From: Myxococcota bacterium
GTDB taxonomy: Bacteria > Myxococcota_A > UBA9042 > PHBI01 > JAWLBL01
Length of the DNA: 64,000 bases
Reading direction: 5' to 3'
NCBI GenBank assembly: GCA_041687695.1
Contig: JAWLBL010000003.1
Coordinates: 183,660 to 247,659 of the forward strand
Shown here: positions 13,208-32,583 of the stretch, piece by piece
Numbering within the stretch: the stretch's first letter is position 1
Layout: each line of letters starts with the position of its first letter
Made by a program: the position numbers and the translations under genes
The notes under the pieces: generated by a model
What the model saw: the letters and a program-made list of their open reading frames with translations, nothing else
The model's database searches: none
Told to the model about the DNA's origin: nothing

Positions 13208-15031
13208 TCAATTGACCCAGCTGGGCTCCGCGGGGCCCTCGCCGCGCGCCGGCCGTTCGTCGTAGGTCCGCGCCGGCTCGTCGTCCGCGGCCCACGCCGG
13301 GTCCTCGTCGGTGGCGGCCTCAGGCTCGGGCACCACCACGGGCGCCGCGGGGCCCAGCGGATCCCAAGGCAGCGGCCCCAGCGCGTGGCTGTCGCTGACC
13401 GCGCGCAGCGCCTCGATGAGCTGCGAGGTCAGCGGGCCCAGCGTGGACTTGTCGAGCGCGCTCAGCGGCACGGCCTCGTGCACGCGACACAGCGTGGCGA
13501 GCAGCGCCCGGTCGCCGACCGCGTCGGTCTTGTTGAACGCCAGGATGCGCGGCTTTTCGTGCACGCCGAGGTCCCGCAGGATGCGATCGACCGCGTGGAT
13601 GCGGTCCTCCCAGCCGGGCGACGCCACGTCGACCACGTGCACCAGCACGTCCGCGTCGTGCAGCTCCTCGAGGGTGGCCTTGAAGGCGGCCACGAGATCC
13701 TCGGGGAGCGCCCGGATGAAGCCCACCGTGTCGGTCAGGACCAGCTCGCGCTCGTCGGGGAACCGCAGCCGGCGCGTGGTCGGGTCGAGGGTCGCGAACA
13801 GCTTGTTCTCGGCCACCACGTCGGCGCCGGTGAGCGTGTTGAGCAGCGTCGACTTGCCGGCGTTGGTGTAGCCGACGATGGCCGCGACCGGGACCTGCTG
13901 GGTCTCGCGCCGCCGGCGCCGTTGCTGGCGCTGTGCGGCCAGCTGATCGATCTGCCGCTGCAGGTGCGTGATGCGGTCCTTGGCGCGGCGGCGGTCGATC
14001 TCGAGCTTCGTCTCGCCCGGCCCGCGGCCGCCGATGCCGCCGGTCAGGCGGCTCATGGCGCTGTTCTTGCCCGCCAGGCGCGGCAACGTGTACTTGAGTT
14101 GCGCCAGCTCGACCTGCAGCTTGCCGTCGCGCGTGCAGGCGCGCTGGGCGAAGATGTCCAGGATCAGCTGGGTCCGGTCGATGACGCGCGCCTCGGTGAC
14201 GTCGGCGATGCTGCGCACCTGCGAGGGCGACAGATCGCGGTCGAAGATGATGAGGTCGACGCCCTGCTGCATCGCGGCGAGGACCAGCTCGTCGAGCTTG
14301 CCGCGTCCGATGAGGAAGCGCGGGTCCAGCTCACGCCGGCGCTGGATGACCGTCTCGACGATCTCGACGCCGGCCGTCGCCGCAAGCTCGGTCAGCTCGC
14401 CGAGGCTCTGCTCGACGTCGGGCTCGGTCGCGGCGCCCGTCGTGACGTGCACGGCGATGGCGCGGGTCGCGTGGACACCGGCCCGCAGGACGGCGCCCTG
14501 CGCGGCGAAGCGCTCCTCGAGCTCGTCCATGAGCTTGAGGAAGTGCAGCTCGAGATCGTGGATCGGCTCGGGCCGCAGCACCTCCCACGGCACGTCGGAC
14601 GGTCCGGGCGGGATGCAGTGGGCCAGCTCGAGCGTCGTCGCGCGCCCGTCGTCGTCGACCTGCAGCACGCCGATGAGGTCGAGCTGCAGCAGGGTGAGGT
14701 CCGTCAGGTCGTCGCGCGTCAGCGGCTCGCCGCCGAGGTGCGTGTGGATGAGCCGGACGCCGCGGAAGCGCCCCTGGCCGGCGCGGTGGCGGCCGAGGTC
14801 GGGGAGGAACAGCTTGTGGCCGTCTCCGACGATGACGTGCTGGACGCGCCCGCGTCGATCGACGAGCACGCCGACCTGACGCCGGATCTCGCGCGAGATG
14901 GCGCCCATGAACTGGGCGAGCTCGGCCGTGATGACCTGGGCGGGCGGCACGCTGCGGCGGAAGATGCGCTCGAGCGCGTGCTTCTGGTGCGGCTTGAGAC
15001 CGGTGACGTTCCCTGTGACGTTGCTGGCTAT
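13208..15031 (-). CDS. hflX: GTPase HflX (long form), probable ATA start
   Basis: GRGPGETKLE, VGYTNAGKSTL, LFATLDPT, DTVGFI, NKTD; N-terminal GN..GLK and R..HTH motifs of long-form HflX; start position inferred. Confidence 0.92.
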   Translation of the reverse strand: MASNVTGNVTGLKPHQKHALERIFRRSVPPAQVITAELAQFMGAISREIRRQVGVLVDRRGRVQHVIVGDGHKLFLPDLGRHRAGQGRFRGVRLIHTHLGGEPLTRDDLTDLTLLQLDLIGVLQVDDDGRATTLELAHCIPPGPSDVPWEVLRPEPIHDLELHFLKLMDELEERFAAQGAVLRAGVHATRAIAVHVTTGAATEPDVEQSLGELTELAATAGVEIVETVIQRRRELDPRFLIGRGKLDELVLAAMQQGVDLIIFDRDLSPSQVRSIADVTEARVIDRTQLILDIFAQRACTRDGKLQVELAQLKYTLPRLAGKNSAMSRLTGGIGGRGPGETKLEIDRRRAKDRITHLQRQIDQLAAQRQQRRRRRETQQVPVAAIVGYTNAGKSTLLNTLTGADVVAENKLFATLDPTTRRLRFPDERELVLTDTVGFIRALPEDLVAAFKATLEELHDADVLVHVVDVASPGWEDRIHAVDRILRDLGVHEKPRILAFNKTDAVGDRALLATLCRVHEAVPLSALDKSTLGPLTSQLIEALRAVSDSHALGPLPWDPLGPAAPVVVPEPEAATDEDPAWAADDEPARTYDERPARGEGPAEPSWVN

Positions 15032-15171
15032 GGCTCGACTCCTGTGGCCGCCGAGGGCGAAGCGCGATCTGCGACGCGCCCCGCGGCGGAGCGCCCTGGA
15101 AGTGGCGGACGTCCCAGCATAGTCACCGATTCCCGGGCTGGAAGGCCTTCGCGCAGCGCCGCGGCCCGCAT

Positions 15172-16680
15172 CTATTGAAAGGCCTTGTGGATCTCGCGCC
15201 GGATCGGCAGGGGAGGGCGGGTGCGGCGTGCTTCGCGGAGCACCGCGAGGGCCTCGAAGCGCTGCCCCTCGCGCAGCAGGTAGCTGCCCAGCTTGAACAG
15301 GATCTCGGGGTCGCCCGGGGATCGCCGCAGCCCCTCGCGCAGGTACGCGATGGCGTTGCGGTGGCGCAGCTGCAGCGCGTTCAGCTCGCTGAGGAACACC
15401 AGCGTGTCGCGATACCCGGGGCTCCCCTCCCAGACGCGCTTGAAGAAGGCCAGCGCGTCGTCGTACCGGCGCAGCAGCACGTAGGTGCGCCCCAACAGAT
15501 AGTGGGTCTCGAGATCGTCCGGGTACAGGTACTCGTTCTCGGTCAGCACCTTCTCGGCCTTGTCGGGCTGATAGTTCTCGATGTAGGCCTTGGCCAGCGC
15601 TCGCCGAGTCTCGATGTTGCGTCGGTCGGCCTCGAGCAGCCCGGTCAGCGTCTCGATGATCTCCTGGGGCAGCTTGCCGCGCGTGCTCAGATAGGCCTCG
15701 CGCTGTGTCGGCTCCGGGTAGTGTCGCTCGGCCTTGTCGAAGAACCCGATCAGCGCGCGCACGTCGGGTTGGTGTCCCCACGCGGCCAGGGACTGCTGCA
15801 GGGTCGCCAGAGCCTCTCCGAGCCGGCCCTGCCGCGCGAGGATGTCGGCCAGCAGGTTGAGGGCCAACGGGAACGCCGCGTTGTGCGCCAGCGCCTGCCG
15901 CGCCTCGGCGGCGGCCTGATCCACGTCGCCCAGCCGCTCGTGCAGGACGGCGGCGAGCCAGTGCAGCTGGGCATGGAAGTAGTGGTTGCCGTGGATGAAG
16001 GCGAGGCGCCCGGCGCGCTCGTCCTCGGGCGCGGCCGCCATCGCCCGTGAGACCAGCGCCAGGGCCTCCTGGTACTCGGCCTGCCCGAGCCGCTGGTAGG
16101 CCTGCTGCGCGAAGCGCTCGGCGCGCGACCGGTGCTCGCCCCAGGTGTTCGGATTGGCCGAGAGGTAGTGGTGGCCCCCCGCCTCGGGATCGCCCTCGGG
16201 GGCCCCCACGCGGTGCTCGACGACCCGCCAGCCGTCGTCGAACTGCCTGACGGTCATGGTCACGCGGCTCCAGCCCGCCGAGAGCGTCCCGTTGTGGAAC
16301 AGGTCCTCGTGCCACTTCAGAAAGGACACCGACACGGTCCGGCGACCGCCGTCGGTCCCTGTGATGGCCGGCTCGACCAGGCGCAGCCGCGTGCTCGCGA
16401 GGAGGTCGAAGCGCGGCGAGTCGAGGAGCTCCACGAACAGCGGCGACCCCTCGGGCGCCAGCCCCAGGATCTCGAAGGGGTTCCGGCTCTCCCACGCCGC
16501 CTGATAGCCCGACAGCAGGCGCTCCATGGCCCGCTGCTGGTCGGCCGCCACGTCGCCCTGAGCCCGCCCGGGCCCCGCGACGACGGCGACCAGGGCCGAC
16601 GCCAAGGCCGCCAGCGCGGCGAGCAGGGACGCCATGCGGAGGGTCCGGCTGGGCCCATCGAATCGCAGGGTGCGCGGCAT
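15172..16680 (-). CDS. Exported protein with NTF2/SnoaL-like N-terminal domain and TPR repeats
   Basis: Signal peptide (..GPGRA-QG); Y.AAWE..N and GWRVVE NTF2-like pattern; repeated TPR motifs (YLLGRTY..., FKLGSY); alternative ATG at 16635. Confidence 0.7.
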   Translation of the reverse strand: MPRTLRFDGPSRTLRMASLLAALAALASALVAVVAGPGRAQGDVAADQQRAMERLLSGYQAAWESRNPFEILGLAPEGSPLFVELLDSPRFDLLASTRLRLVEPAITGTDGGRRTVSVSFLKWHEDLFHNGTLSAGWSRVTMTVRQFDDGWRVVEHRVGAPEGDPEAGGHHYLSANPNTWGEHRSRAERFAQQAYQRLGQAEYQEALALVSRAMAAAPEDERAGRLAFIHGNHYFHAQLHWLAAVLHERLGDVDQAAAEARQALAHNAAFPLALNLLADILARQGRLGEALATLQQSLAAWGHQPDVRALIGFFDKAERHYPEPTQREAYLSTRGKLPQEIIETLTGLLEADRRNIETRRALAKAYIENYQPDKAEKVLTENEYLYPDDLETHYLLGRTYVLLRRYDDALAFFKRVWEGSPGYRDTLVFLSELNALQLRHRNAIAYLREGLRRSPGDPEILFKLGSYLLREGQRFEALAVLREARRTRPPLPIRREIHKAFQ

Positions 16681-16901
16681 CACCACCCCACCCTAGGGGG
16701 CCCTCTGGCCCGCGACAAGCGACCGGGCCTTGGCGACGCGCCTCGGTTCCTTCTCCAGAACCGCGCCCCGAACGCGTGTGATTACAGGCGCTTGGGTGGC
16801 CCGCAACGGCCTTGTGTCGAGCCCGTGATTCACGGATGATGTCTCGCCTGACGGCGGTCATCCGTACGCGCGTGATAACGCGCCGGCGCCGACGTCGCGC
16901 C

Positions 16902-16929
16902 TTGACACCCCCAGAGGGCGGCCTATAAA
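16902..16929 (+). promoter_or_regulatory. Sigma70-type promoter of the barrel/protease operon
   Basis: TTGACA-N16-TATAAA about 60 nt before the GTG at 16989. Confidence 0.65.
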
Positions 16930-16988
16930 GCCTCTCCCTCTTACGGCCGACGCCCCGCGCATCGTCGGCCACAACAGGTGGACTGACC

Positions 16989-18134
16989 GTGACATTCCGA
17001 ATCCCAGGCTTCGCGGGCCGCATCGGCCGCGCGGCTGCGATCGGGGCGCTCGCCCTCCTCGCCACCCCACCGGCGCTCGCCGGCGAGGCGGCCGACGTCA
17101 AGGGCGAGCAGGTCGCCCAGGCCGACAGCAACTCGGCCACGAGCAGCACGTCCGCCGTCAACCAGCCCGGCGCGATCCCGGTCGCGGCGCCCAGCGCGTT
17201 GCGCGCGATGCTCCGCGTCGACGCCTCGGTCGGCGCGGGCTCCTTCGTGAGCGGCGTCCAGAACAACACGGCCTTGTCGACCGCCTGGACGCCCACGCTC
17301 AGCTACGGGCTCACCGAGCGGGTGACCCTGTCCGGCACCATCGCCGCGGCGATGTACCACATCAACGACACGACGGTGCCCTTCGAGAACGGCCGCGTCC
17401 TGCTCTCCGACGCCTCGCTCGGGGTGGCGCACAGCAAGATCTGGGGCTGGTCGCCCGAGACCGAGGCGGGCGCCCCGGCGTCGGGGGTCAACCTGAACCT
17501 GTCGGGCGCCTTCCGGCTCTACCTGCCGACCTCCGAAGCGTCCTTGATGCAGGACCGCCTCTTCTCGATGCGTCCGACCCTGACGTTCGGCGCCAGCTGG
17601 GGACCGCTGTCGGCCGGCTGGACCGCGGGGTTCATGAAGTACTTCATGACCTCGAGCAACCCCTCGATCGACTGCGAGGAGTGGGCGGCCTCGGGCGAGT
17701 GCCTGTCGGGTCGCGGCACCGCCCCGGGCGGCCGCTTCGAGAGCGAGCGCCGCGGCGGCGAGGTCTACCTCCCGTCCGCGGGCGTCAACTCGTTCTACGT
17801 CATGAACTCGTTCTCGCTGGGCTGGCAGATCGTCGACGGCCTGTCGCTGGGCGCGTCGGCGACGGTCTTCAACATCTTCGGCGTCCGCGCCTTCGAGGTC
17901 GACGACATGTCTTCACCCAACGCGCGGTCGGGCCGTGCCCAGACCGACCGCCTCGTCACCGACCTCGGGATCACCTACCGCATCGTGCGGCAGCTGTCCG
18001 TGGGCGCCTCGCTGTCGACCGACACGGTCCAGCCGTTCGGCGCCAACGGCGAGGACTTCGTCTGGCAGGGCTTCTTCGGCCGCGCCTCGGACAACATCTC
18101 GTCCGTCAACTTCTCGATCATCGGTTCGCTTTGA
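16989..18134 (+). CDS. Predicted outer-membrane beta-barrel protein
   Basis: Signal peptide ending ALA; many amphipathic strands with aromatic ends; C-terminal strand VNFSIIGSL; LSD..LG and LYLPTS motifs. Confidence 0.7.
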   Translation: MTFRIPGFAGRIGRAAAIGALALLATPPALAGEAADVKGEQVAQADSNSATSSTSAVNQPGAIPVAAPSALRAMLRVDASVGAGSFVSGVQNNTALSTAWTPTLSYGLTERVTLSGTIAAAMYHINDTTVPFENGRVLLSDASLGVAHSKIWGWSPETEAGAPASGVNLNLSGAFRLYLPTSEASLMQDRLFSMRPTLTFGASWGPLSAGWTAGFMKYFMTSSNPSIDCEEWAASGECLSGRGTAPGGRFESERRGGEVYLPSAGVNSFYVMNSFSLGWQIVDGLSLGASATVFNIFGVRAFEVDDMSSPNARSGRAQTDRLVTDLGITYRIVRQLSVGASLSTDTVQPFGANGEDFVWQGFFGRASDNISSVNFSIIGSL

Positions 18135-18246
18135 CGCGAGGCCTTCCAAGCGCTCGCCACGACGTTCGTACTCGCGTGCTGGCCCGGGACGCCAGCCACG
18201 CCGACGGCTGGGTCCCGGTGACCCGGTCCCTGCAGGAGGTTCGCTG

Positions 18247-21200
18247 ATGAATCTGGACGCCCTCAAGAGAACGCTGACCCGCCTCCTCGGCGTGGTGGCG
18301 CTGGCGCTCGTACCGCTCGGCCTCCTGCCCGGATGCGTCGACGAGGTCGGCCTCGTCGACCGCACGCTCAACGACAAGATGGACAAGCGCATGTTCGAGG
18401 GCGTCTGGATGTACATCCAGACGACGGTCGACGTGCCCTACTCGACGGCCATCAGCTTCACCGGCGAGACGAACTTCGGCGAGGCCGCCAAGATCGTCTT
18501 CGACATCCAGGAGAACTTCCTCGTCGCCTACCCGGTCATCGAGACCATCGAGGGGACGGAGAAGGGCTGGAAGACCCACAAGATCCGAAAGTACTGGGAC
18601 AAGGACGCCCGGGACGAGTTCGTCGAGATGTACGTGGGCCCGCCGGTCGCCCGGTGGAGCATCGTCAAGCACTTCGACGTCATCCGGAACTACAACACGT
18701 TCAACGGCGCGCAGACCAACGAGGTCGTCGAGAACACGACCGACCGGCCCTGGTACGAGCGCGACTTCATCCGCGTGAACTGGGCCCAGCAGGGCATCCG
18801 GCCGTTCTTCTACGATCTGGGCGGCGCCTCGGCCTCCGACAGCTACTTCGTCGGCGAGGACAAGGTCGGCGACCCCGACGCCATGACCGTCGACATGGAG
18901 GGCGGCTACTTCGACTACGTCATCCGGACGAACGTGTGGTCGCTCGGCCAGAACCGCTGCAGCGTCTACAACCTGACCGAGTACGACTGCGTCTCCGCCG
19001 AGGTGAAGGCGCGGCACTCGTTCCGTCGCATGGACCCGCGGCGTGACTACGAGCCGCTGCGCTACCACAACAACGAGCACCAGGAGAAGTTCGGCTTCTT
19101 CCTGACCGAGCGCTACGCCTACGACTCGGACTGGGGCCCCACCTACGAGGGCAAGGTCTCGTTCGCCAACCGCTGGAACCTGTGGCGCAACACCTACGAC
19201 TTCCGCAAGCCCGTCGACGACGAGGGCAACGAGCTGACCGTCGCGTGCTTCGCCGACGCCGACTGCGACCGCGAGGTCGGCGAGCGTTGCCAGAAGACCA
19301 CCGGCTGGTTCGACGACGGTTACTGCGCCGTCCCCGTGGCGCGCCCGTACAAGGACCGCGACCTCCGCCCGATCGTCTTCCACCTCAACCAGGACTGGCA
19401 CCCCGACTACCTGGCCGAAGCCTATGAGTCGGCGGACAACTGGAGCGACGTGTTCAAGGACGCCGTCGCCTGGGCGCTGTTCCACGAGGAGAAGGGCCAG
19501 GGGATCACGCGCACGTGCCAGTCGCACGCCGACTGCGCCACCGCGTCCCTCGTGGCGGACCACACGGTCGACGTCATCGAGAAGGGCTCGCGCTGCTTGC
19601 AGGCCGCCGACTGCTCCAACACCTGCAACCTGGCCAAGAACAGCTGCACCCTGACCGGCGGCAGCTGCACGTCGGACGCGCAGTGCACGGAGTACGCCTG
19701 CGGCGGCGACGGCTTCTGCGGCGCCCCGCGCGCCTGCAGCGCGGCCAACCCCTGCGCCCTGGGCCAGACCTGCTCGGGCGGCGTCTGCAAGCAGGGCGGT
19801 GAGACCGTCGCGACGCGCCTGCCGACGGTGAGCACCCGCGGCAGCACCGTGATCTACCACGGCCACGGCGACGACAAGTCCATCGTGACCCGCGACGTCT
19901 TCCCGGCGCGCCTGCTCGACCCGACCCAGCAGGGCCTGACGGGCAACAACTCGTGGGTGCGCTTCGTCAACGCGGCCCCCGGGGCCGGCTCGTTCGGCCT
20001 GAAGGTGGGCGACGTGGTCTTCGAGGGCGGCGCCTACGGCGACACCGTCGACTACGCGACGACCCGCCCCGAGACGGCCAAGTTCATGAAGCAGGTGCCG
20101 TCGGGCATCGGCCTGAAGTTCGAGGTGACCAGCGGCGGCTCGGTGGTCGCCTCGGTCTTCGGCGACGTGGCCGCCAAGTCGCAGTACCTGGTCGTCTACA
20201 ACGGCAAGGACGTCATCGTCGCGGGCGCGTCCTTCAACGAGTCGCGCCAGGGCATCCGGTTCCTGAACGCCGCGGAGGGCGTCTCGCTCGACTTCGCCGT
20301 CGAGGGCGTCCGGCTGGACACCGCGGTCGGCTACCGCGCGGCGACCCCGTACCGCAGCATGGCCGGCGACGTCCAGCGCGTGACGCTCAGCGTGGCCGGG
20401 TCGCGCGGCGACCTGACCTGCTACACCGACGACACCATCGGACGCTGCGTCGGCTGGGGCGCCGACATCACGCAGAAGGACCATGACCGCGTCGCCGAGA
20501 TCAAGAGCAACCTGCCCGACATGTTCGTGCTCTGCGAGAACACCTACAACGAGCTCGAGGCGGTCGATCAGGCCAGGATGGCGGCGCGCGAGGGCAACGC
20601 CCGTTACACCCAGGACCTGGGCAACGGCGCGTTCTACAACCCCTGCGGCGACCCCGACCTGATCCCGCACCCGACCGAGACCAAGAAGATCGGCGACATC
20701 CGCTACAGCTTCTTCTACTGGGTCAACGAGCAGCAGCGCTCGGGCCCCCTCGGCTACGGGCCCTCGGCCGCGGATCCCGAGTCGGGGCAGATCCTCTTCG
20801 CGACGGCCTACATCTACGGCGGCGCGATGCACACCTACGGCCAGTACGCGGCCGACCTCATCAATCTGGTCAACGGCGACCTGGACACCGCCGACCTCGT
20901 GACCGGCGAGTGGGTCCGCAAGGCGCTCGAGGCGCAGGCCAAGGAAGAGGACGCCAACAAGGCCACCATCATCGGCGCCCTGACCGAGGTCGAGGAGGAC
21001 GCCACCTCCGACGCGGAGGCCGAGTCCCGCACGCGCGAGCTGCTAGAGAGGCTCGAGCGCTTCGGCGGCCACGCGGCCATGCAGCCGAGCGCCCGCGGCG
21101 AGGCCGCCCAGGCGCACCATGCCCACGACCACGTGGCCCACGCGCGGACCCTGGTCGCGCCGCAGCGGCAGCCGAAGGACTACGAGTTCCCGGAGCTGAT

Positions 21201-23628
21201 GCACTACACGGTCAACCCGAAGAAGCTGGGTGAGGACCTCAAGGCCTCGCTGCCTCAGGTCGACCCGCAGCTCAACCACCGGCGCCTGGGCCTCATCAAG
21301 GACACCTGGATCGAAGACCTCACGATGAACAACGAGGTCATGCTCAACGCGCAGGCCATCGATCCCGACGGTGAGATGTCCTACGACGAGCTCAAGGCGC
21401 GCCTGTCCCCGACGCACTGGGCGTCGAAGGCCGTCATGAACGTCGAGTCGGAGCGCATGCGGCGCCTGTCGCGCGGGTGCATCTACATGGGCGAGTTCGT
21501 GGACGACTCGCTCTTCGGCCTGGCCAAGGAGATGAAGGACAAGGGCCTGACCGGCGACGCCATGCGCATCGCGGTCGCCAGCCGCATCCTCGGCGGCGTG
21601 CTCGAGCACGAGGTCGGCCACACCGTGGGCCTGCGCCACAACTTCTCCGGCTCGACCGACGTCTTCAACTTCCACGACGAGTACTTCCAGGTCCGCGAGC
21701 CCGAGGTCATCCTCTGCCAGGACGACGGCTGGTGCGACGACCTCACGGGCGAGGCCTGCGCCATCAAGCAGTGCTCGAGCGACGCCGACTGCGGCGCGGG
21801 CCTGCTGTGTGGCACGAACAACCAGTGCTCGGCGCTGGCCGGCGACGGCTCGCAGGCTCTGACCCCGACCGGCGTGTGCGCGCGCCCGGTCGGCAACAAC
21901 ACCTGCACCACCGACGCGCAGTGCGGCGATGGTCTCATCTGCAGCGTCGTGAACAACCGGTGCTTCGATCCGAGCGAGCAGTTCGCCCCGCGCTTCTGGC
22001 TGACCGAGAACGAGAAGGCCAACAAGCGCACCGAGTACCAGTACTCGACCATCATGGACTACGGCGGCCGCGTGAACAGCGACGTCCACGGCCTGGGCAA
22101 GTACGACTACGCCGCGATCAAGTTCGGCTACACGCAGCTCGTCGACACCTACACCGACATCTCCAAGCTGATGGAGCGCATCGACAAGGCGGCGGCGCTC
22201 ACCGGGCAGTCGCGCGCCCAGATGTCGTACTTCATCAACCCGGCCTACTGGTCCAACCGCGGCACGGGCTTCTACCACGCGTTCAACTACCTCACGAACT
22301 ACATCGGGGTTGAGCAGAACCTCCAGCGCGTCCCGCGCCCGTACGACCAGGTCAAGTACCAGCGCGAGATGGTCAGCAACGACGTCCGAGAGGACCTCGA
22401 CTGGGCCAACGTCGAGGTGCCGTACGCGTTCTGCTCGGACGAGTTCCGCGGCAACATGGGCTGCTACTACTTCGACCAGGGCATCGACGCCGGCGAGATG
22501 GCGGCCCACGCGCAGGAGCAGCTGAAGAACTACTACGTCTTCGACGCCTTCAAGCGCGAGCGCCTGTTCTTCGGCTCGTACGGCAGCGCGATGGGCTACT
22601 ACGCGCGCCTGATGGACCGGTACCTGCGCGTCCTCGGTGACGTCGGCATGTACTACGCCATGTGGGACAACTTCCTCTGGCGCTACTCCTGGTACAACGA
22701 GTGGAAGACCTGGCCCCTGGGTGGCCGCGCCCTCAGCCGCGCCGCGGTCGACGCGTTCGGCTACCTCAAGGACACGGTCTCGTCGCCCGCGCCGGGCTGC
22801 TACGTCCAGGACGAGGACAGCGGCGCCTACGTCAACGTCGGCCTGACGACCGAGGGCAAGGACTGCGAGCTCGAGGTGCCCTTCGGCATTGGTCGCTTCC
22901 CCTACACCCAGTTCGGCACCGACCTCGGCTACAACTTCTACCAGCACCCGCTGTGGTTCGGCAGCTTCTGGGAGAAGCTGGGCGCCCTCATCACGCTCAC
23001 CGACTCGACGGCCTACTTCGTCGACCAGAGCGTCGGCGAGCAGCTCAACATCGGCGTCGGCACCTCGCTCGGCTTCAACACGGTCTTCTCGAACGACATG
23101 AACGCCTTCCTCGGCGGCATCGTGTCGGGCACGCTCGACAAGTACGCCGGGCGCGCCGTGAACGGGAACTACATCGGGCCGTCGGTGCTCGGCGACCTGG
23201 CCAACGGGCCTCCGGTCGAGCCGTCGCTGAACAACTTCACCCTCAAGCTGTACGCCGCCCTGTTCGGCCTGGCCTACCTGCCCGCCGGCTTCGACCCGAC
23301 CTTCATCGACCGCATGGCCGTGTTCCTCGAGGGCGAGGCCACCGAGTACGACCACGGCGGCCAGACCGGCGTGGTCGCGCATCGCTTCGAGGACCCGATC
23401 GGCGGCAAGGTCTACGTGGCCTACTCGACCAACTACGGGACCCAGGCGAACAAGCTGGACATCGGGGCGACGCTGGTGGAGCGAGCGCAAGCGGCGGCCG
23501 ACGCCTGGGCCGAGGCGACCGGGCCGCAGCGCGCCGCGCTCGAGCGCGAGCTGCAGCAGCAGCGCGAGCTGCTCGACCTGCTCCGGCAGCTCCACCACAT
23601 CTACGGCAACGCCGTGCTGGGCCTGTAG
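18247..23628 (+). CDS. Giant lipoprotein zinc metalloprotease (metzincin, EcxA/DUF4953-like) with Cys-rich and DUF4397-like inserts, 1793 aa
   Basis: GGAGG RBS; lipobox LPG-C; HEVGHTVGLRHNF at ~21607; Met-turn STIMDY. Confidence 0.85.
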   Translation: MNLDALKRTLTRLLGVVALALVPLGLLPGCVDEVGLVDRTLNDKMDKRMFEGVWMYIQTTVDVPYSTAISFTGETNFGEAAKIVFDIQENFLVAYPVIETIEGTEKGWKTHKIRKYWDKDARDEFVEMYVGPPVARWSIVKHFDVIRNYNTFNGAQTNEVVENTTDRPWYERDFIRVNWAQQGIRPFFYDLGGASASDSYFVGEDKVGDPDAMTVDMEGGYFDYVIRTNVWSLGQNRCSVYNLTEYDCVSAEVKARHSFRRMDPRRDYEPLRYHNNEHQEKFGFFLTERYAYDSDWGPTYEGKVSFANRWNLWRNTYDFRKPVDDEGNELTVACFADADCDREVGERCQKTTGWFDDGYCAVPVARPYKDRDLRPIVFHLNQDWHPDYLAEAYESADNWSDVFKDAVAWALFHEEKGQGITRTCQSHADCATASLVADHTVDVIEKGSRCLQAADCSNTCNLAKNSCTLTGGSCTSDAQCTEYACGGDGFCGAPRACSAANPCALGQTCSGGVCKQGGETVATRLPTVSTRGSTVIYHGHGDDKSIVTRDVFPARLLDPTQQGLTGNNSWVRFVNAAPGAGSFGLKVGDVVFEGGAYGDTVDYATTRPETAKFMKQVPSGIGLKFEVTSGGSVVASVFGDVAAKSQYLVVYNGKDVIVAGASFNESRQGIRFLNAAEGVSLDFAVEGVRLDTAVGYRAATPYRSMAGDVQRVTLSVAGSRGDLTCYTDDTIGRCVGWGADITQKDHDRVAEIKSNLPDMFVLCENTYNELEAVDQARMAAREGNARYTQDLGNGAFYNPCGDPDLIPHPTETKKIGDIRYSFFYWVNEQQRSGPLGYGPSAADPESGQILFATAYIYGGAMHTYGQYAADLINLVNGDLDTADLVTGEWVRKALEAQAKEEDANKATIIGALTEVEEDATSDAEAESRTRELLERLERFGGHAAMQPSARGEAAQAHHAHDHVAHARTLVAPQRQPKDYEFPELMHYTVNPKKLGEDLKASLPQVDPQLNHRRLGLIKDTWIEDLTMNNEVMLNAQAIDPDGEMSYDELKARLSPTHWASKAVMNVESERMRRLSRGCIYMGEFVDDSLFGLAKEMKDKGLTGDAMRIAVASRILGGVLEHEVGHTVGLRHNFSGSTDVFNFHDEYFQVREPEVILCQDDGWCDDLTGEACAIKQCSSDADCGAGLLCGTNNQCSALAGDGSQALTPTGVCARPVGNNTCTTDAQCGDGLICSVVNNRCFDPSEQFAPRFWLTENEKANKRTEYQYSTIMDYGGRVNSDVHGLGKYDYAAIKFGYTQLVDTYTDISKLMERIDKAAALTGQSRAQMSYFINPAYWSNRGTGFYHAFNYLTNYIGVEQNLQRVPRPYDQVKYQREMVSNDVREDLDWANVEVPYAFCSDEFRGNMGCYYFDQGIDAGEMAAHAQEQLKNYYVFDAFKRERLFFGSYGSAMGYYARLMDRYLRVLGDVGMYYAMWDNFLWRYSWYNEWKTWPLGGRALSRAAVDAFGYLKDTVSSPAPGCYVQDEDSGAYVNVGLTTEGKDCELEVPFGIGRFPYTQFGTDLGYNFYQHPLWFGSFWEKLGALITLTDSTAYFVDQSVGEQLNIGVGTSLGFNTVFSNDMNAFLGGIVSGTLDKYAGRAVNGNYIGPSVLGDLANGPPVEPSLNNFTLKLYAALFGLAYLPAGFDPTFIDRMAVFLEGEATEYDHGGQTGVVAHRFEDPIGGKVYVAYSTNYGTQANKLDIGATLVERAQAAADAWAEATGPQRAALERELQQQRELLDLLRQLHHIYGNAVLGL

Positions 23629-23639
23629 GAGGACGAGCG

Positions 23640-26600
23640 ATGCGCACCCTTGGAAACTGCGGCACTCACCGCTCATCGCATGGCACCAGCGCGCGCGCTG
23701 GGGGAGCTCGGGGCATGTGGTCTTCTCTTCGTCAGCTGGCCGCCGTCGGCCTCGTCGCCGCCGGCGTGGCCCTGGCGGGTCTCGGTGGCTGCGCCGACCC
23801 CGAGCCCATCAACCGCGTCCAGCCGAACCTCATCGAGAAGTCGAAGCTGGGCGGCGAGTGGTACATCCTGGACACCATCGTCCGGGCGCCGTTCGCCTCG
23901 CACTACTTCTTCGCCGGTCTGCAGAGCTCGCTCGACCGCGGCGTCTTCGAGATCGAGGAGCGGCACCTGTACCTGTACCGCACCTACGAGTTCATCGAGG
24001 GCGTCGAGCAGCAGGGCCTCAAGAGCGACTCGGACAAGCCGCTGCTCGACGAGGACGGCAACCCGGTCACCTATGACAAGGTGATGCCCGACGGGTCGGT
24101 GAAGAAGGCGACGCGCTACGTGTACCGCAGCGCGCCGCTGGCCAAGTACGCCATCTCCGGCCACTTCGACGTTCGTCAGTCCTACAACCCCATCACGGGC
24201 GAGCCGACCAACGTGACGGTCGAGGACGCGAGCGAGAAGTACTGGTGGGAGCGCGACTGGATGCGCGTCGACTTCGGGTCCGATACGGCCGGCAACTCGG
24301 CGCGGTTCGGCTCGGACATGTTCAACGCGGTGGTGTACGAGGGTGAGACCGGCCCCGAAGAGCTGAAGCTCCGGGTCCAGGACGACGGCGCGTACATGGA
24401 CTTCGTGGTCCGCGGCTGGATCACCGCGCCGCGCACCTACCTGTGGGGCTGGGGCTGGATCCCGACCTGCTTCTTCTACCCCTGGTACACGGGCTCGTAC
24501 TTCGAGTGCGGTGAGGAGGAGATCCACATCCGCACCAGCCTGATGAAGGTCGACCCCGGCAACACCTACCAGCCGTGGAACTACGACGACCACATGCTCG
24601 ACAAGTTCGGCTTCTTCCGCCGGGCCCGGGCCACCTACGACCAGTACTACGGCGCGACCTTCAGCGCGGCCGAGCGCCACATCCAGCGCTTCCGGATCTG
24701 GGAGGACTACGTCGACGCGGACGGCGACGGCAAGCTCGACTACGCGTCGATGAAGCCGCAGCCGATCGTCTACTACCTGTCCGAGAAGTTCCCGCGAGAG
24801 CTCATCCCGGGCGCGATCGATCTGGCCGATCAGTGGAACGAGCCCTTCGTCGAGGTGGTCGAGCACCTGACGGGCAAGCCCGTGGACGGGCGCATGTTCG
24901 TCCTGTGCGAGAACAACCTCGCCGAGGTCGCGGCCCTGCTCGAAGAGGATCCGGACGCCGTGCTCGCCGAGACCGACGAGCGCTACTGCAAGAACATGGA
25001 CCAGGCCAAGCCCTACGGCGACCTGCGCTACAACCAGCTGGTCAGCATCAACGAGCCGACCCAGTTCGGGCTGTACGGCTACGGTCCGGCGCACTCGGAC
25101 CCGCTGACGGGCGAGACCATCAACGCTCACGCGTTCCAGTACACGGGCAACCTGCGCCTGGGTGCGCGGACCGCGGTCGACATGATCGAGTACTCGGCGG
25201 GCGTGCAGACCTTCAGGGACGTCGCCGACGCCGAGCACATCCGGACCGACATCAAGGCCCGCACGCTGCGCCAGTCGCAGTCGGAGCCGCGCGTGCCGAC
25301 GAGCATCGAGGCGGCCCAGACGATGGCGAGCGAGCTGCTCGCCCCGGAGGTCGACGCCGTCATCACGCACTTCGGCCTCGAGGAGACGGACCTCGACCTG
25401 GCGCGCGCCGGCATGTCGCGGCTGCGCAACGCCAGCGAGTTCGACTTCGTGTGGCTCAACGCCGACATGGCCGCCCTCGTCGGTCTGCCGGCGGACCAGC
25501 TCGGCCAGATCCAGGATCCCGACCACTTCCTCCGTGGCCTGGTGCACCCGGCCTACACCAACACCGAGGACATGCTCCTGTGGGGCGAGAAGAAGGCGGC
25601 GCATCTGGGCCAGCAGGCCATCTGCATGGGCGAGCACTTCGACGACTCGTTCAACGGCCTCGCGGCCGAGTACCAGGGCGTCTATGACCAGGCCATCTGC
25701 GACGGGCTCAGCCAGCACGCGGACGCCGACCAGCTCATCTTCGACTTCTCGGCCTTCGCCGAGCTGGGCGCCAGCTGCGACGGCGGGGACTCGGCCTGCG
25801 CCTCCGACGAGGTGTGCACCTTCGTGGATCAGGGCGACGTCTCGGGCAAGTACTGCATGCGGCCCTGCACGGCCAACGCCCTGCTCCAGCAGCTGCGCCT
25901 CGAGATCCGGCGCGTCAACCAGATCGGCGAGTTCCAGTATTGGGATCCCAACGCGCTGTACACCGCGACCAAGGACGCGCGCGTCAACGCCAGCCAGCAG
26001 GCCGCGCGCGAGCTCATCGAGCAGGTGCGCGAGAAGGTCTTCCTCGAGACCTTCGACCGGATGTGGTCGACCGTCGCCATGCACGAGGCCGGCCACAACC
26101 TCGGCCTGCGTCACAACTTCGCGTCGTCGACGGACGCCCTGAACTACTTCGACGACTACTGGAGCATGAAGGGCACCACCGACGGTGAGGGCCACTGGCA
26201 TCCCAACAACCTGTGGTCGCGCGAGACCGACGCTCAGGTCGCCAGCCGCATGCGCGAGTACCAGCAGACCTCCATCATGGAGTACTCGGGCGCCTTCAAC
26301 GCGCGCTACCAGGGGCTCGGCTCCTATGACCGGGCGGCCATCCTGTTCGGCTACGGCGAGCTGCTCGAGGTGTTCGAGAACCCGCCGGCGCTCGAGGCGT
26401 ACGCCGACTACATCGCCGAGCCCTCCGACGGCGACCCGATGGCGCTGACGCTGACGCCGCGGCGCCTGCATCCGCTGGCGCGCGCCCTCGAGAAGATCCA
26501 CCACACGAACTACCCGGCGGTCTTCGGCGGCGTCGAGAACATGACCAAGCGCAAGGTCGTCAAGGCCGAAGACATCGCCGACACCTCGAAGCCCTGCAGC

Positions 26601-28070
26601 CAGTTCGACGACCCGTACTCGACGGCCGTCTGCGGCCAGGCCGGCTCGTTCTGCCGCCCCTTCCCGTCGGGCTTCTTCTGCACCAAGCCCGACATGGTCG
26701 AGGTGCCCTTCCGGTTCTGCTCGGACGAGTACAACTGGTCGTCGCCGCAGTGCCAGACCCACGACGAGGGCACCGACTCGTTCGAGATCGTGCTCAACTC
26801 GGTCGACGACTACGAGTACTACTGGCCGTTCCGGGCGTACATGCGCGACAACGACCTGTTCTCACCGTCGACCGGCTACTGGAACTCGGTCATGTCGATC
26901 ATGGCCGGCTGGCGCAAGCACTTCGAGCACTGGGCCTACAACTACACCCGCTACAACAAGGACGGGTGGTGGGAGAAGCGCTTCGGCCAGCCCTGGCACC
27001 TCGACGTCAACGGCGGCCTGGGCGCCACCCTGGCGGCCAAGAACATCTTCGAGACGATGGCCAACGTCTTCGGGCGGCCCTCGCCGGGGTTCTACGGCTG
27101 GAACGCGGTCAAGCAGCGCTACGAGCCGGTCGTCAACAACGGCAAGAACACCTACTCGAACGTGTTCTACATCCCCGAGGACTGCCCCGAGCGCGAGCGC
27201 GTCGGCAAGGGCACGCTCTGCGGTGGCCGCCCGATGTACCCGAGCTACGACTTCACGGGTTACATCTACGTGCCTTACCGTGCCGGCACGTTCTACGACC
27301 GCCTGGCCGCCATGCAGTTCATGACCTTCCCGCAGATGCTGTACGTGCGCGGCGTGGACCGCACCATCGACGCGCGGCGCTTCCGCCTGAACTTCGCCAC
27401 CGTCTGGCCCGAGCGCGTCTCGAACCTGCTCGCCGGCATGCTCACCGGCGAGCCCGAGATGAGCGGCTGGTGCATCGAGCACGACGGCGTGCCGCCGACC
27501 CAGAACGGCAACGGCGATCCCAGCGCCGTCAAGCCGCGCCGCTGGTTTGGCACCGAGGCCGAGCTCGACGCCTACTATGCCAACTGCGTCGCGCTCACCC
27601 CCGAGCCCGAGTACAGCTTCCCCACGACCCAGTACCGCCTGCCTGCGCTGGCCTCGATCTACGGTCTGGGCTGGTCCAGCCAGACCTTCGATCGCGGCTT
27701 CGCCGACCGCGCACGCGTCTGGCTCGAGGGTGAGGGCAACGACGTCACGATCCCGGCCGGCTTCGAGGTCGTGAAGTACACCGATCCCTTCTCGGGCAAG
27801 ACCTACATGGCGCCCTACGATCCCGAGGAGTTCGATCCGAACGACCTCCAGGTCACGCCGCGCTCGGCCGTGCCCGCCGTGGATCTCGAGGGCCATCGCC
27901 ACGTGTACTGGCCCGCGGCGCGCATGCTGTCGTGGGCCAACCGGGAGCTCGCGAAGTACCCCAACCAGAGCACGCTGACCGGGTCCTACAGCTACAGCGA
28001 CCTCCAGCAGATGGTGGGTCGCCTCGAGATCATCCGCGGCCTCTACCGCTACTTCGAGTACGGCTACTGA
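23640..28070 (+). CDS. Second giant lipoprotein zinc metalloprotease, paralogue of the upstream gene, 1476 aa
   Basis: GGAGG RBS; lipobox LGG-C; HEAGHNLGLRHNF at ~26082; Met-turn TSIMEY; DADGDGKLD Ca-binding-like loop. Confidence 0.85.
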   Translation: MRTLGNCGTHRSSHGTSARAGGARGMWSSLRQLAAVGLVAAGVALAGLGGCADPEPINRVQPNLIEKSKLGGEWYILDTIVRAPFASHYFFAGLQSSLDRGVFEIEERHLYLYRTYEFIEGVEQQGLKSDSDKPLLDEDGNPVTYDKVMPDGSVKKATRYVYRSAPLAKYAISGHFDVRQSYNPITGEPTNVTVEDASEKYWWERDWMRVDFGSDTAGNSARFGSDMFNAVVYEGETGPEELKLRVQDDGAYMDFVVRGWITAPRTYLWGWGWIPTCFFYPWYTGSYFECGEEEIHIRTSLMKVDPGNTYQPWNYDDHMLDKFGFFRRARATYDQYYGATFSAAERHIQRFRIWEDYVDADGDGKLDYASMKPQPIVYYLSEKFPRELIPGAIDLADQWNEPFVEVVEHLTGKPVDGRMFVLCENNLAEVAALLEEDPDAVLAETDERYCKNMDQAKPYGDLRYNQLVSINEPTQFGLYGYGPAHSDPLTGETINAHAFQYTGNLRLGARTAVDMIEYSAGVQTFRDVADAEHIRTDIKARTLRQSQSEPRVPTSIEAAQTMASELLAPEVDAVITHFGLEETDLDLARAGMSRLRNASEFDFVWLNADMAALVGLPADQLGQIQDPDHFLRGLVHPAYTNTEDMLLWGEKKAAHLGQQAICMGEHFDDSFNGLAAEYQGVYDQAICDGLSQHADADQLIFDFSAFAELGASCDGGDSACASDEVCTFVDQGDVSGKYCMRPCTANALLQQLRLEIRRVNQIGEFQYWDPNALYTATKDARVNASQQAARELIEQVREKVFLETFDRMWSTVAMHEAGHNLGLRHNFASSTDALNYFDDYWSMKGTTDGEGHWHPNNLWSRETDAQVASRMREYQQTSIMEYSGAFNARYQGLGSYDRAAILFGYGELLEVFENPPALEAYADYIAEPSDGDPMALTLTPRRLHPLARALEKIHHTNYPAVFGGVENMTKRKVVKAEDIADTSKPCSQFDDPYSTAVCGQAGSFCRPFPSGFFCTKPDMVEVPFRFCSDEYNWSSPQCQTHDEGTDSFEIVLNSVDDYEYYWPFRAYMRDNDLFSPSTGYWNSVMSIMAGWRKHFEHWAYNYTRYNKDGWWEKRFGQPWHLDVNGGLGATLAAKNIFETMANVFGRPSPGFYGWNAVKQRYEPVVNNGKNTYSNVFYIPEDCPERERVGKGTLCGGRPMYPSYDFTGYIYVPYRAGTFYDRLAAMQFMTFPQMLYVRGVDRTIDARRFRLNFATVWPERVSNLLAGMLTGEPEMSGWCIEHDGVPPTQNGNGDPSAVKPRRWFGTEAELDAYYANCVALTPEPEYSFPTTQYRLPALASIYGLGWSSQTFDRGFADRARVWLEGEGNDVTIPAGFEVVKYTDPFSGKTYMAPYDPEEFDPNDLQVTPRSAVPAVDLEGHRHVYWPAARMLSWANRELAKYPNQSTLTGSYSYSDLQQMVGRLEIIRGLYRYFEYGY

Positions 28071-28089
28071 GCCTCGGCCGCTGCTGAAC

Positions 28090-28126
28090 ACGAAGCCCCC
28101 GCGAGCCCGACTCGCGGGGGCTTCGT
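28090..28126. terminator. Perfect 16-bp hairpin between convergent genes (likely bidirectional terminator)
   Basis: ACGAAGCCCCCGCGAG-cccga-CTCGCGGGGGCTTCGT. Confidence 0.75.
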
Positions 28127-28163: not shown

Positions 28164-28865
28164 TCAGCCCCCGGCCGGCCTCAGGAACACGAACACGGCC
28201 CCGCTGCCGCCCTGGGCCATCGGCGCCGTGACCACCTCGCGGATCCGCGCCAGGAAGTCGACCCGGAGCCACTGCATCAGGGCCTCCTGCAGCACGGCCC
28301 CATCTCGGCTGTGCAGGCCGCGGCCAGGGATGATGCGGACCGTCGCGTGCCCCTGCTCGGCGGCGCGGCGCAAGAAGCTCTCCACCGCCTCGCGCGCGGC
28401 CTCGCGGCGCAACCCGTGCAGGTCGAGCGTCGGCGCCGCCTTGAACTGCCCCGACTTGATGCGCCGCTTCAGAGTCCGGGGGGTCCCGTCCACGCGCTCG
28501 TCCGCCGCTGGCCGAGTCGAGACGTGAGGCTCGTCTGAACCGTCATCGTCGACGGGCGCCATCCCGGACGCCTCCATGGCCGCCGCGAACAGCGCGTCGT
28601 CCTCGGCCAGACGTCGCTCACGCGGCGGGGTGCTGCGCGGCGAGCCGGACGCCGACGACCTGGGCGCCGTCTCGCGTGGCTGCGGGGCGTCACCCATCAT
28701 GGCCTCGAACAGCGCGTCATCGTCGGCCTGGCGTTGGCGCCGCGACTGCCCGACGCCCAGCTGTCGCATGGCCCGCTCGAACTCCCGATCGGCCAGGTGA
28801 TCCCCGAGGCCGTCCTGGTGATCCGGCCGACCTCGGCGCCCCTTCCCGCTCGTGTCATCGCTCAT
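28164..28865 (-). CDS. Smr/MutS2 C-terminal domain protein
   Basis: LDLHG, IIPGRG.HS, GGSGAVFVFL; two DDALF..AM-like motifs upstream. Confidence 0.88.
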   Translation of the reverse strand: MSDDTSGKGRRGRPDHQDGLGDHLADREFERAMRQLGVGQSRRQRQADDDALFEAMMGDAPQPRETAPRSSASGSPRSTPPRERRLAEDDALFAAAMEASGMAPVDDDGSDEPHVSTRPAADERVDGTPRTLKRRIKSGQFKAAPTLDLHGLRREAAREAVESFLRRAAEQGHATVRIIPGRGLHSRDGAVLQEALMQWLRVDFLARIREVVTAPMAQGGSGAVFVFLRPAGG

Positions 28866-28995
28866 GACAGCCTGCCCTCCCTCTGCTAGAAGCTCCACGC
28901 GTCGCCACGGGCGCCACCCCGAAGCGGGCCCGTCGCCGCGACCGCACGCGGCCGCCAACCCAGCCAGACGAAGCACCCTCGCGCGGAGGACCAGT

Positions 28996-30708
28996 ATGCG
29001 AATGACCCAGCTCCACGCACCGACCCTCCGGGAGGCCCCCAAGGAGGCGGAGCTCGTCAGCCACCGGCTGCTCTTGCGCGCCGGCTTCATCCGGCAGCTC
29101 ACGGCCGGCGTCTACGACATCCTGCCGCTCGGCATGCGCTCGGTCACGCGGATCTCGAACATCATCCGCGAGGAGCTCGACCGCGCAGGCGCCCAGGAGG
29201 TCCTGCTGCCGGCGGTTCAGCCCGCCGAGCTCTGGAAGGAGAGCGGGCGCTGGGACAAGTACGGGCCCGAGCTGCTCCGCTTCAAGGACCGCAAGGAGGC
29301 CGAGTACTGCCTCGGGCCCACGCACGAGGAGGTCATCGTGGACCTCGTGCGCCGCGATGTGCGGTCGTACCGGCAGCTGCCGGTCAACCTGTACCAGATC
29401 CAGTTCAAGTTCCGTGACGAGATCCGGCCCCGTGGCGGCCTGATGCGCGGTCGCGAGTTCATCATGAAGGACGCCTACTCCTTCGATGCGAGCGAAGAAG
29501 GGGCCCACGCCTCCTACCGCGCGATGTATCAGGCCTACGAGGCGATCTTCCGCCGCTGCGGCCTGGACTTCCGCGCGGTCGAGGCCGACACGGGCAACAT
29601 CGGCGGCAGCCTGTCGCACGAGTTCCAGGTGCTCGCGACCCACGGCGAAGACGCCATCGTCAGCTGCGACACCTGCAGCTATACCGCCAACGTCGAGAAG
29701 GCGGCGATCGGGCAGCGGGGCGTGACCGCTCCGCCGATCACCGAGGGGGCGCCAGAGCGGGTCGATACGCCGAACCGACGGACCGTCGAGGAGGTGACGC
29801 ACTTCCTCGGCGTGACCCCCGATCAGCTGATCAAGACCCTGATCGTCCTGGTCGATGGCCAGCCGTGGGCTGCGCTGGTCCGGGGCGACCGAGAGCTCAA
29901 CCCGCTGAAGATCAAGGACGCGCTACAGGCCGGCGAGGTCACTCTGGCCGACGACGCCACGGTCACGCGCGTCACTGGGGCGCCGGTCGGCTTCGCCGGA
30001 CCCGTCGGGCTGTCGATCCCCGTCATCGCCGACCCCGAGGTGGCGCTGATGGTCGACGCCGTCTGTGGGGCGAACGCGGCCGACACGCACCTGCGCGGTG
30101 TCGCCGCAGGGCGCGACTTCAGCCCACGGCAAGTCGCCGACGTGCATCTGGCGCGCGAGGGCGACGCCTGCCCCCGCTGCGAGGGGCGGCTGCGGGCCTT
30201 CCGCGGCATCGAGGTCGGCCACGTCTTCTACCTCGGCACGCGCTACTCCAAGCCGATGGGCTGCACGTTCCTGGACCGTGACGGCCAGGACAAGCCCATG
30301 GTCATGGGCTGCTACGGCATCGGCGTCACGCGCATCCTGGCCGCCGCCGTCGAGCAACACTTCGACGATCGCGGCATCGTCTGGCCAATGGCGCTGGCGC
30401 CGTTCCAGCTCGCCATCATCCCGCTCGGTCGACCCGGGGACGAGCTGGCCTCGGCCGCGGATCAGCTCTACCGCGACGCCAAGGCGGCCGGACTCGACGC
30501 GGTGATCGACGACCGCGACGAGCGCCCGGGCGTCAAGTTCGCCGACTCCGATCTCATGGGCTTCCCGCTCCAGGTCGTCCTGGGCAAGCGGGGCCTGGCC
30601 GAAGGCAAGGTCGAGCTGAAGTTCCGCGACGGCCGCGCCACCGAGAACGTGCCGCTCGCCGAGATCGTGGAACGGCTCCGCGCCCTGGTCGCCGAGGCGC
30701 TCGCGTGA
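28996..30708 (+). CDS. proS: Proline--tRNA ligase (with INS editing domain)
   Basis: SHRLLLRAGFI, LGPTHEE, KFRDEIRPRGGLMRGREF, GIEVGHVF, MGCYGIGV. Confidence 0.96.
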   Translation: MRMTQLHAPTLREAPKEAELVSHRLLLRAGFIRQLTAGVYDILPLGMRSVTRISNIIREELDRAGAQEVLLPAVQPAELWKESGRWDKYGPELLRFKDRKEAEYCLGPTHEEVIVDLVRRDVRSYRQLPVNLYQIQFKFRDEIRPRGGLMRGREFIMKDAYSFDASEEGAHASYRAMYQAYEAIFRRCGLDFRAVEADTGNIGGSLSHEFQVLATHGEDAIVSCDTCSYTANVEKAAIGQRGVTAPPITEGAPERVDTPNRRTVEEVTHFLGVTPDQLIKTLIVLVDGQPWAALVRGDRELNPLKIKDALQAGEVTLADDATVTRVTGAPVGFAGPVGLSIPVIADPEVALMVDAVCGANAADTHLRGVAAGRDFSPRQVADVHLAREGDACPRCEGRLRAFRGIEVGHVFYLGTRYSKPMGCTFLDRDGQDKPMVMGCYGIGVTRILAAAVEQHFDDRGIVWPMALAPFQLAIIPLGRPGDELASAADQLYRDAKAAGLDAVIDDRDERPGVKFADSDLMGFPLQVVLGKRGLAEGKVELKFRDGRATENVPLAEIVERLRALVAEALA

Positions 30709-31424
30709 GCCCCGCTCCGGACCAGCCGGCCGCGGCGGTCGATCGCCTGATCGTCGCCGCTGACGTCCCACTGACCGAGCTGCCCTCCCTGCTCGCCGAT
30801 CTCGACGGGGTCGCCCGCTGGATCAAGGTCGGCTCGACCCTCTTCGCCGAGGGCGGGCCCGACCTCGTGCGGAGCCTGCACGGGCAGGGGTGGCGCGTCT
30901 TCCTGGACCTGAAGCTGCACGACATCCCCCACCAGGTCGAGCTGACGACGCGTGCCCTGGCGGGGCTCGGGGCGGATCTCCTCACGATCCACGCCGCGGG
31001 CGGCGCCGAGATGATCGCGGCGGCGCGCCAGGGTCTCAGCGGACACGCCACGCGGCTGCTCGCGGTCACCGTCTTGACCAGCCTGGACGGCGCGGCCCTC
31101 CGCGCGATCGGCTGCGCCGAACCCCCCGAGCAGCTGGTCCTGCGGCGCGCACGCCTGGCCATCGACCATGGGGCCCATGGCCTCGTCGCGTCGGCACAGG
31201 AGGCGCGGACGCTCCGCGCCGAGCTCGGACGAGACTTGCACCTCGTCACGCCCGGCGTGCGCCCCAGCGGCTCCGATCCGGGAGATCAGGCGCGCGTCAT
31301 GACGCCCGCCGACGCGATCGCGGCCGGCGCGACCCAGCTCGTCGTCGGACGCCCGATCACCGGGGCGGCCGATCGCCGTGATGCGGCGCGGCGTCTCGTC
31401 AGCGAGATCGCGAGGGCCTCGTGA
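30705..31424 (+). CDS. pyrF: Orotidine-5'-phosphate decarboxylase
   Basis: FLDLKLHDIP, VTVLTS, VTPGVRP, DQARV, VVGRPIT. Confidence 0.95.
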   Translation: MSPAPDQPAAAVDRLIVAADVPLTELPSLLADLDGVARWIKVGSTLFAEGGPDLVRSLHGQGWRVFLDLKLHDIPHQVELTTRALAGLGADLLTIHAAGGAEMIAAARQGLSGHATRLLAVTVLTSLDGAALRAIGCAEPPEQLVLRRARLAIDHGAHGLVASAQEARTLRAELGRDLHLVTPGVRPSGSDPGDQARVMTPADAIAAGATQLVVGRPITGAADRRDAARRLVSEIARAS

Positions 31425-32164: not shown

Positions 32165-32181
32165 AGGTCGCGATTCGCTGG

Positions 32182-32215: not shown

Positions 32216-32257
32216 TCTCGCTTGGGCCGACCCCTACCGGCCGGTCCGGCGGGTCAC

Positions 32258-32507: not shown

Positions 32508-32583
<76 letters not shown>

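Follow-up and report, generated by a model that had tools for sequence, protein, structure and literature searches.

A widely conserved envelope gene module pairs a predicted β-barrel with giant metzincin lipoproteins and likely couples surface hydrolysis to import

We analysed a 64,000-nucleotide stretch of the genome of a Myxococcota bacterium (assembly GCA_041687695.1, contig JAWLBL010000003.1, forward-strand positions 183,660 to 247,659), here called the window, in which three genes encode a β-barrel protein and two giant lipoprotein metalloproteases, A and B. Sequence comparison indicates that the basic unit is one barrel with one or more long (>1000 amino acids, aa) proteases of the DUF4953 type. 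It is a real envelope module, widely conserved over three bacterial phyla and apparently undescribed, and likely couples surface hydrolysis to import. In the open-access literature, we found no description of a barrel paired with a giant metalloprotease and no paper with both DUF4953 and metalloprotease. Our favoured reading, which we consider about as probable as all else together, is surface protein cutting with passive, TonB-independent peptide uptake. The lipid-anchored zinc proteases would cleave proteins at the cell surface; the resulting peptides would pass inward via the barrel, without TonB energy, and would reach a periplasmic peptide ATP-binding cassette (ABC) importer to serve as food.

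The functional link between the barrel and the proteases is strongly supported by the synteny, genome co-occurrence and co-divergence of their genes. The original prediction called for a search for barrel-metalloprotease synteny, and such synteny was found: within the same order, the barrel gene lay directly upstream of the protease A gene in 16 of 17 genomes, the exception being a genome 67% complete, and protease B followed A in 13 of the 17 (listed rows). Among 76 named loci picked by their protease (3524 open reading frames, ORFs), an iterated profile found 37 barrel-family ORFs, all adjoining a protease gene; the remaining 39 loci were cut short, or held orphan proteases or short relatives. 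Barrel-protease loci were found in records of Myxococcota, Bdellovibrionota, Vibrio, Photobacterium, Ferrimonas and Aeromonas. The family, first described to us as giant myxobacterial members, is therefore not limited to myxobacteria and extends to Bdellovibrionota and Gammaproteobacteria. Among the loci inspected, no fusion of barrel and protease came to light, although no search aimed at one was made.

Co-occurrence was counted in three genome samples by whole-genome searches with one profile for the barrel and another for the protease, whose results agreed closely; related genomes are not independent, and kinship inflates the counts. In our organism's own phylum (61 genomes), the barrel was present in 35 genomes and the long protease in all 35, with two more pairs on refetching (37/61); two genomes held a short relative only, and 22 neither gene. 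In the myxobacterial order (that of the Myxococcaceae record; 71 genomes), the same 21 genomes carried both genes, one carried a short relative only and 49 neither. In the Vibrio order (151 genomes), ten barrels and ten long proteases occurred, paired, in seven genomes, two of these paired copies being already in the search profiles by construction, while 46 other genomes held shorter relatives only, with no barrel match. Across the three samples, every genome in which a full-length barrel was found also had a long protease, even where the two genes were unlinked; a weak partial barrel match (G245, E 4e-6) was left out of the counts.

Barrels and proteases also diverged together. Over 52 barrel-partner pairs, the pairwise identities correlated with r 0.85, a value inflated by shared ancestry, compared to at most 0.20 in 2000 permutations; the L119 pair, whose sequence contains N, and the duplicates L126 and L129 were excluded from the paired alignments. 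In a tree of 22 barrels, those from two-protease operons (nine rows, support 96/99) stood apart from a single-protease clade (nine rows, support 96/97), regardless of genome. We relied on the barrel tree alone, as the protease tree was a quick one in which five rows cut at a wrong start clustered artificially.

These data bear on an explanation that we regard as rather improbable, namely that barrel and proteases share protein feeding without contact, as a co-regulated porin and separate membrane-bound proteases. It would account for genes that are often unlinked and for the common orphan proteases, but not readily for the one-to-one pairing, the joint presence or absence in three genome samples, or the identity correlation over the 52 pairs, inflated as that is. 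The loci also argue against the fixed three-part machine with a protease heterodimer that had been suggested for A and B: one-barrel/one-protease loci and unlinked barrels are many, and orphan proteases occur. We rejected an obligatory heterodimer because single-protease loci are common; the A and B paralogues would most likely broaden specificity instead.

Further module arrangements were observed. The same genome contains a second pair (contig C17, L001:7267-13289), with a 385-aa barrel and a single long metzincin lipoprotein of ~1620 aa, which is divergent and belongs to the other module type. Loci L135, L136 and L137 form a third type, with the protease upstream, a divergent barrel downstream and ~1 kb between them. 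Bdellovibrionota modules L075, L078 and L092 adjoin other peptidase genes (M20, M14, TldD/PmbA).

The barrel protein gave no Pfam, NCBIfam or useful PDB sequence match, and its 381 residues held no Pfam TonB-receptor match. An AlphaFold2 model of residues 68-381, computed from 15 sequences, showed 12 strands (predicted local distance difference test, pLDDT, 71.9; predicted template modelling score, pTM, 0.68), with poorly predicted long loops. A Foldseek search with this model returned FapF first (E 2.8e-8) and the COG4313 channel tenth. VIA-align gave Z 15.2 for COG4313 (root-mean-square deviation 3.7, 234 aligned) and Z 15.0 for FapF (4.1, 240 aligned), with CymA, OmpG and NanC tied with both. 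The model and its structural matches agree with the β-barrel assignment of the first gene. Conservation in the family is highest at an Asp of strand 4 and at the Pro (Pro180) of an LPTS motif ending strand 5; this Pro was conserved in at least 90% of 52 family rows, and the Ser stands where the PTG motif of FapF and COG4313/Pput2725 has Gly. None of the 52 members matched PF13557 at E 0.01; the Atlas has at rank 14 (score 0.95, 145 shared features) a cluster in which 51% of the members carry PF13557, which is a lead only. The barrel shares with FapF and COG4313/Pput2725 its 12 strands, the best structural matches and the PT[S/G] ending strand 5. It differs in sequence (6-11% identity), in conserving just one such motif and in having a giant metzincin as partner. 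No coiled coil is evident in the modelled residues (68-381), and the surroundings of the unit, which consists of three genes only, showed neither amyloid nor C39 peptidase genes. We read the resemblance, based on the predicted model, as distant kinship and not as family membership.

As described in PMC5557850, the PTG motif lies at the base of loop 5-6 in FapF and Pput2725, was proposed as a lateral gate and is dispensable for export by FapF, which operates with a periplasmic protease, FapD. It is possible, though we think it considerably less probable than surface cutting with uptake, that the barrel is there specifically to export or anchor its own protease. It would either move the lipoprotein to the outer leaflet, with the PTS motif serving as a lateral gate for the acyl chains, or keep it at the surface, and peptides would enter via ordinary porins. 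A polypeptide exporter as the top Foldseek match, and LPTS at the strand end where the proposed gate lies, are consistent with this, as are the clustering of barrels by module type rather than genome and the finding that one barrel may go with several unlinked proteases. On the other hand, a cargo of 1100-1900 aa with a conserved Cys pair in its first domain would be large for a 12-stranded pore, the predicted short, ordered tether described below speaks against threading through the lumen, and in FapF the PTG motif is dispensable for export (PMC5557850). Export or anchoring alone would also leave the importer neighbours unexplained, although it is compatible with a feeding role, and both readings can hold.

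Proteases A and B are, as the original prediction stated, giant lipoproteins with an intact zinc motif and a Met-turn (Table 1). The lipobox cysteines are Cys30-Val in A and Cys51-Ala in B, where an alternative start at Met27 would yield a more usual signal length. The Met-turn Met was invariant in the homologue alignments, and the zinc motif was intact in 374 of 376 stored long homologues (at least 1000 aa). In E. coli, Asp at position +2 bears on lipoprotein sorting; A and B, with a lipobox Cys and no Asp at +2, have by this rule the sequence signature of outer-membrane lipoproteins, and Asp stood at +2 in only two of 214 parsed lipoboxes. We infer outer-membrane sorting, exposure on the outer face and docking on the barrel. 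Eight collinear motifs had been listed as shared by A and B; seven match in both, and F.DP..GK.Y is found in A only because B has Y in place of F. Between A and B, identity is only 23-27%, in three long segments, and the orthologues of A are ~55-60% identical across the same order.

The proposed membership in the EcxA/DUF4953-type metzincins agrees with PF16313 (DUF4953) scores of 37.6 and 37.4 bits against a cut-off of 24.2, although the match is made essentially through the zinc motif, with a best stretch of only ~30 of 316 positions. PF17148 (DUF5117) matched neither A nor B but did match a 900-aa relative (L096). NCBIfam gave no match for the proteases, and PDB sequence searches gave zinc-motif matches only. 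At E 1e-30 or better, the family comprised at least 327 clusters (50% identity), a number that rose to 892 at 1e-10. We tried and rejected the idea of an inactive partner in tandem pairs: seven ORFs outside the strict pattern retain HE..H..G..H wherever this motif is complete.

The model of protease B (residues 51-1250, from 56 sequences; pLDDT 83.6, pTM 0.87) showed an ordered stretch after the lipid Cys, a β-rich N-terminal domain, a core resembling matrix metalloproteinases (MMPs) that is split by an insert of ~300 residues in helices, and a C-terminal part that is likewise helical. Metzincins filled the six best VIA rows, and the core aligned to MMP, serralysin, EcxA and snapalysin with Z 5.0-5.4 (130-190 residues, 3.0-3.6 Å), modest values because a 1200-residue model was searched. 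Foldseek returned no match at E 0.001 or better, and searches with the model as a whole linked its non-catalytic parts to no known fold. The predicted architecture is that of a small MMP-like catalytic core carrying ~1000 further residues. The tether had a pLDDT of 75-90 over the first 20 residues after the lipid Cys; since it is so short and ordered, the enzyme is predicted to sit directly on a membrane leaflet, and we judged a lipid tether threaded through the barrel unlikely. Protease A contains, at approximately residues 320-750 (window 19200-20500), Cys-rich repeats and DUF4397-like domains that B lacks and that may serve in substrate binding or adhesion.

The neighbours that are informative on function are those of the gammaproteobacterial modules. 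A family-5 binding-protein peptide ABC importer was located within ~5 kb in 10 of the 14 gammaproteobacterial module loci, co-oriented and adjacent in six (L089, L094, L095, L138, L139, L144) and convergent in four (L140-L143), with a pyroglutamyl peptidase between in three of the four. Because peptide importers adjoin these loci, we favour surface cutting and uptake over export or anchoring. In the Vibrio order, the binding-protein subfamily of this importer was present in six of seven module genomes and in 11 of 144 others. Ten control loci from seven of those 11 genomes had neither barrel nor protease, and in two of the ten, a TonB-dependent receptor stood beside the same importer. Judged by gene content, it is as if the module fills the outer-membrane step held by the receptor in these control loci; the module neighbours that were scanned included neither TonB nor ExbB genes. 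We infer a peptide cargo and do not read it from the permeases, because the best scores of those tested, to YejB/YejE or Opp models, were all under the cut-offs.

Several other gene arrangements were noted around such importers in genomes lacking the module. In L151:833-5768 and L154:901-5812, a TonB-dependent receptor gene, followed in L151 by DUF3450 and ExbB genes, is divergent from the same Yej-like importer; L153 resembles both, the frame tested there being on the opposite strand. L149:262-4626 (minus strand) encodes a 1455-aa secreted-looking protein downstream of a Yej-like importer, with no Pfam match at E 1e-8.

We must also note the observations that weigh against surface cutting with uptake. 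The direction of transport is not deducible from the fold, because the nearest solved barrels include an exporter (FapF) and an importer of hydrophobic molecules (COG4313). Of 20 regions fetched because they seemed unlinked, 14 had a barrel with unrelated neighbours and no protease close by, the long protease being elsewhere in the genome. The importer link represents about four related arrangements and not ten independent events, and four of the 14 loci had no importer. Queries with the Vibrio importer matched at 11 of 128 loci, all gammaproteobacterial and none from myxobacteria or Bdellovibrionota, and the four family-5 binding proteins (PF00496) of our genome are on other contigs. The earlier suggestion of a protease feeding peptides into a pore gains from the importers beside gammaproteobacterial copies, whereas the myxobacterial and Bdellovibrionota copies lack such neighbours.

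A more specific form of this suggestion is tentative, and we consider it doubtful as it stands. The giant metzincin would be a proteolytic lid capping a small FapF-type barrel, spread over myxobacteria, Bdellovibrionota and marine Gammaproteobacteria, and would trap proteins, cleave them inside a shielded chamber and pass the peptides directly to the pore with no TonB energy. A complex prediction of the barrel with residues 30-318 of A only scored 0.22 against a mark of 0.32, the controls not having been folded. If true, a lid on a barrel would constitute a class of outer-membrane machine that has not been described, the passive equivalent of SusCD with protein as the food.

It is improbable, in our view, that the proteases face the periplasm, where they would process or clear proteins crossing the barrel or the envelope, in the manner of FapD-FapF or BepA-BAM. 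The periplasmic face is the default orientation of outer-membrane lipoproteins, and the module shows high conservation and single-copy synteny within the order. FapF has a periplasmic protease partner (PMC5557850), and envelope metalloproteases with such tasks exist, as CglB of M. xanthus is shed by an unidentified EDTA-sensitive protease (PMC9946355). Nevertheless, no conserved substrate gene was found near the module, and its presence is patchy, with neither gene in the 49 genomes of the myxobacterial order mentioned above. Neither PF16313 nor DUF4953 is entered in the M. xanthus DK1622 table of PMC9548883, perhaps owing to its annotation version; this protease family is therefore unlikely to be the CglB sheddase there. 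Candidate locus tags of M. xanthus were checked in PMC3222651, 10.64898/2026.08.28.747804, PMC4158809 and PMC9548883 and proved wrong: MXAN_5684-5686 are LpoB and two small genes, and MXAN_7039 is a 1015-aa lipase-like lipoprotein beside fadL.

Among known proteases, the closest are the DUF4953/PF16313 Met-zincins (NCBI "zinc-dependent metalloprotease"), including a 760-1000 aa DUF5117-DUF4953 form, with which A and B share HExxHxxGxxHNF, the Met-turn and the strand-and-GDLRY region. In contrast to this short form, the long form has 1070-1950 aa, is lipidated and has a helical insert of ~300 residues. Its N-terminal domain does not match that of the one short protein tested (hhalign probability 1.2%), and only the long form is accompanied by the barrel. 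The catalytic core fold is common to EcxA, MMPs, serralysin and snapalysin, but here it makes up ~1/8 of the chain, and no B subunit, RTX or hemopexin domains were detected. The SusCD/RagAB utilisomes of Bacteroidota likewise pair a barrel with surface lipoproteins for binding or cutting a polymer. The likeness is an analogy only, since their barrel is a 22-stranded TonB-dependent transporter with a plug, compared to the 12-stranded, 381-aa barrel here. Surface hydrolysis followed by import is also the scheme of PrtP-Opp in lactic acid bacteria and of ChiP-CBP chitin uptake in Vibrio, which resemble the proposed route in the surface hydrolase, passive entry and family-5 binding-protein ABC importer; they consist of other protein families and have no barrel-protease gene pair.

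The layout of the locus in the window is given in Table 1.

Table 1. Features of the three-gene unit, in window coordinates.
Feature	Position	Strand	Description
σ70-like promoter motif (putative)	16902..16929	+	TTGACA-N16-TATAAA; TTGACA at 16902, TATAAA at 16924
Barrel gene	16989..18134	+	381 aa: signal peptide, Ala/Ser/Thr-rich linker, predicted 12 strands
Protease A gene	18247..23628	+	1793-aa lipoprotein metzincin; Cys30, zinc motif 1121-1131, Met1270
Protease B gene	23640..28070	+	1476-aa lipoprotein metzincin; Cys51, zinc motif 815-825, Met880
Perfect inverted repeat	28090..28126		16-bp stem, 5-nt loop, without U-tract; between the three-gene unit and the convergent Smr-domain gene

The three co-oriented genes, with the lengths first predicted, are separated by gaps of 112 nt (barrel to A) and 11 nt (A to B). 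Ribosome-binding sites are present before all three, AGGAGG for the proteases and a weaker AGGTGG for the barrel. The proposed promoter stands as a sequence motif: it occurs at three sites in the 7.97-Mb genome, compared to 0.19 expected under independent bases, and is missed by the promoter scanner because that requires T at the last -10 position. It is not kept in relatives, a looser pattern matching upstream of only one of ten related barrel genes. The hairpin predicted as a terminator has its perfect stem and is far more stable than shuffled sequences (z -6.3), none of 200 shuffles reaching its stability. Having no U-run and sitting between convergent genes, it does not qualify as a classic intrinsic terminator. 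The unit is flanked by a tetratricopeptide repeat (TPR) gene and the Smr gene, both on the opposite strand. Its third-position G+C resembles that of neighbouring housekeeping genes and so gives no sign of recent acquisition. The codon bias of protease A (0.82, compared to 0.54-0.78 in seven other window genes) suggests high expression. Translations at 9487-16686 read as aspartokinase, leucyl aminopeptidase, Ssb, HflX and the TPR protein, all housekeeping neighbours, and those at 28164-34071 as Smr, ProS, PyrF, an rRNA methyltransferase and EF-Tu. At 6860-9442 (minus strand), an 860-aa lipoprotein is encoded that has Ig-like repeats and PPC domains, ends in a Cys-rich tail and is likely a surface protein.

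Predatory and protein-eating Gram-negative bacteria need peptides from outside protein without losing them to neighbours, and to our knowledge few machines that couple surface proteolysis to uptake have been described outside Bacteroidota. The module is a concrete candidate. Its barrel family is new, and in its protease family only the small core has solved relatives. Neither gene was found in 11 of 13 genomes of at least 9 Mb in the myxobacterial order, and this absence, together with that from the DK1622 table, may explain why the module has gone unstudied. The named Ferrimonas, Photobacterium, Vibrio and Bdellovibrio records carry the simple two-gene form, which makes the module testable at the bench.

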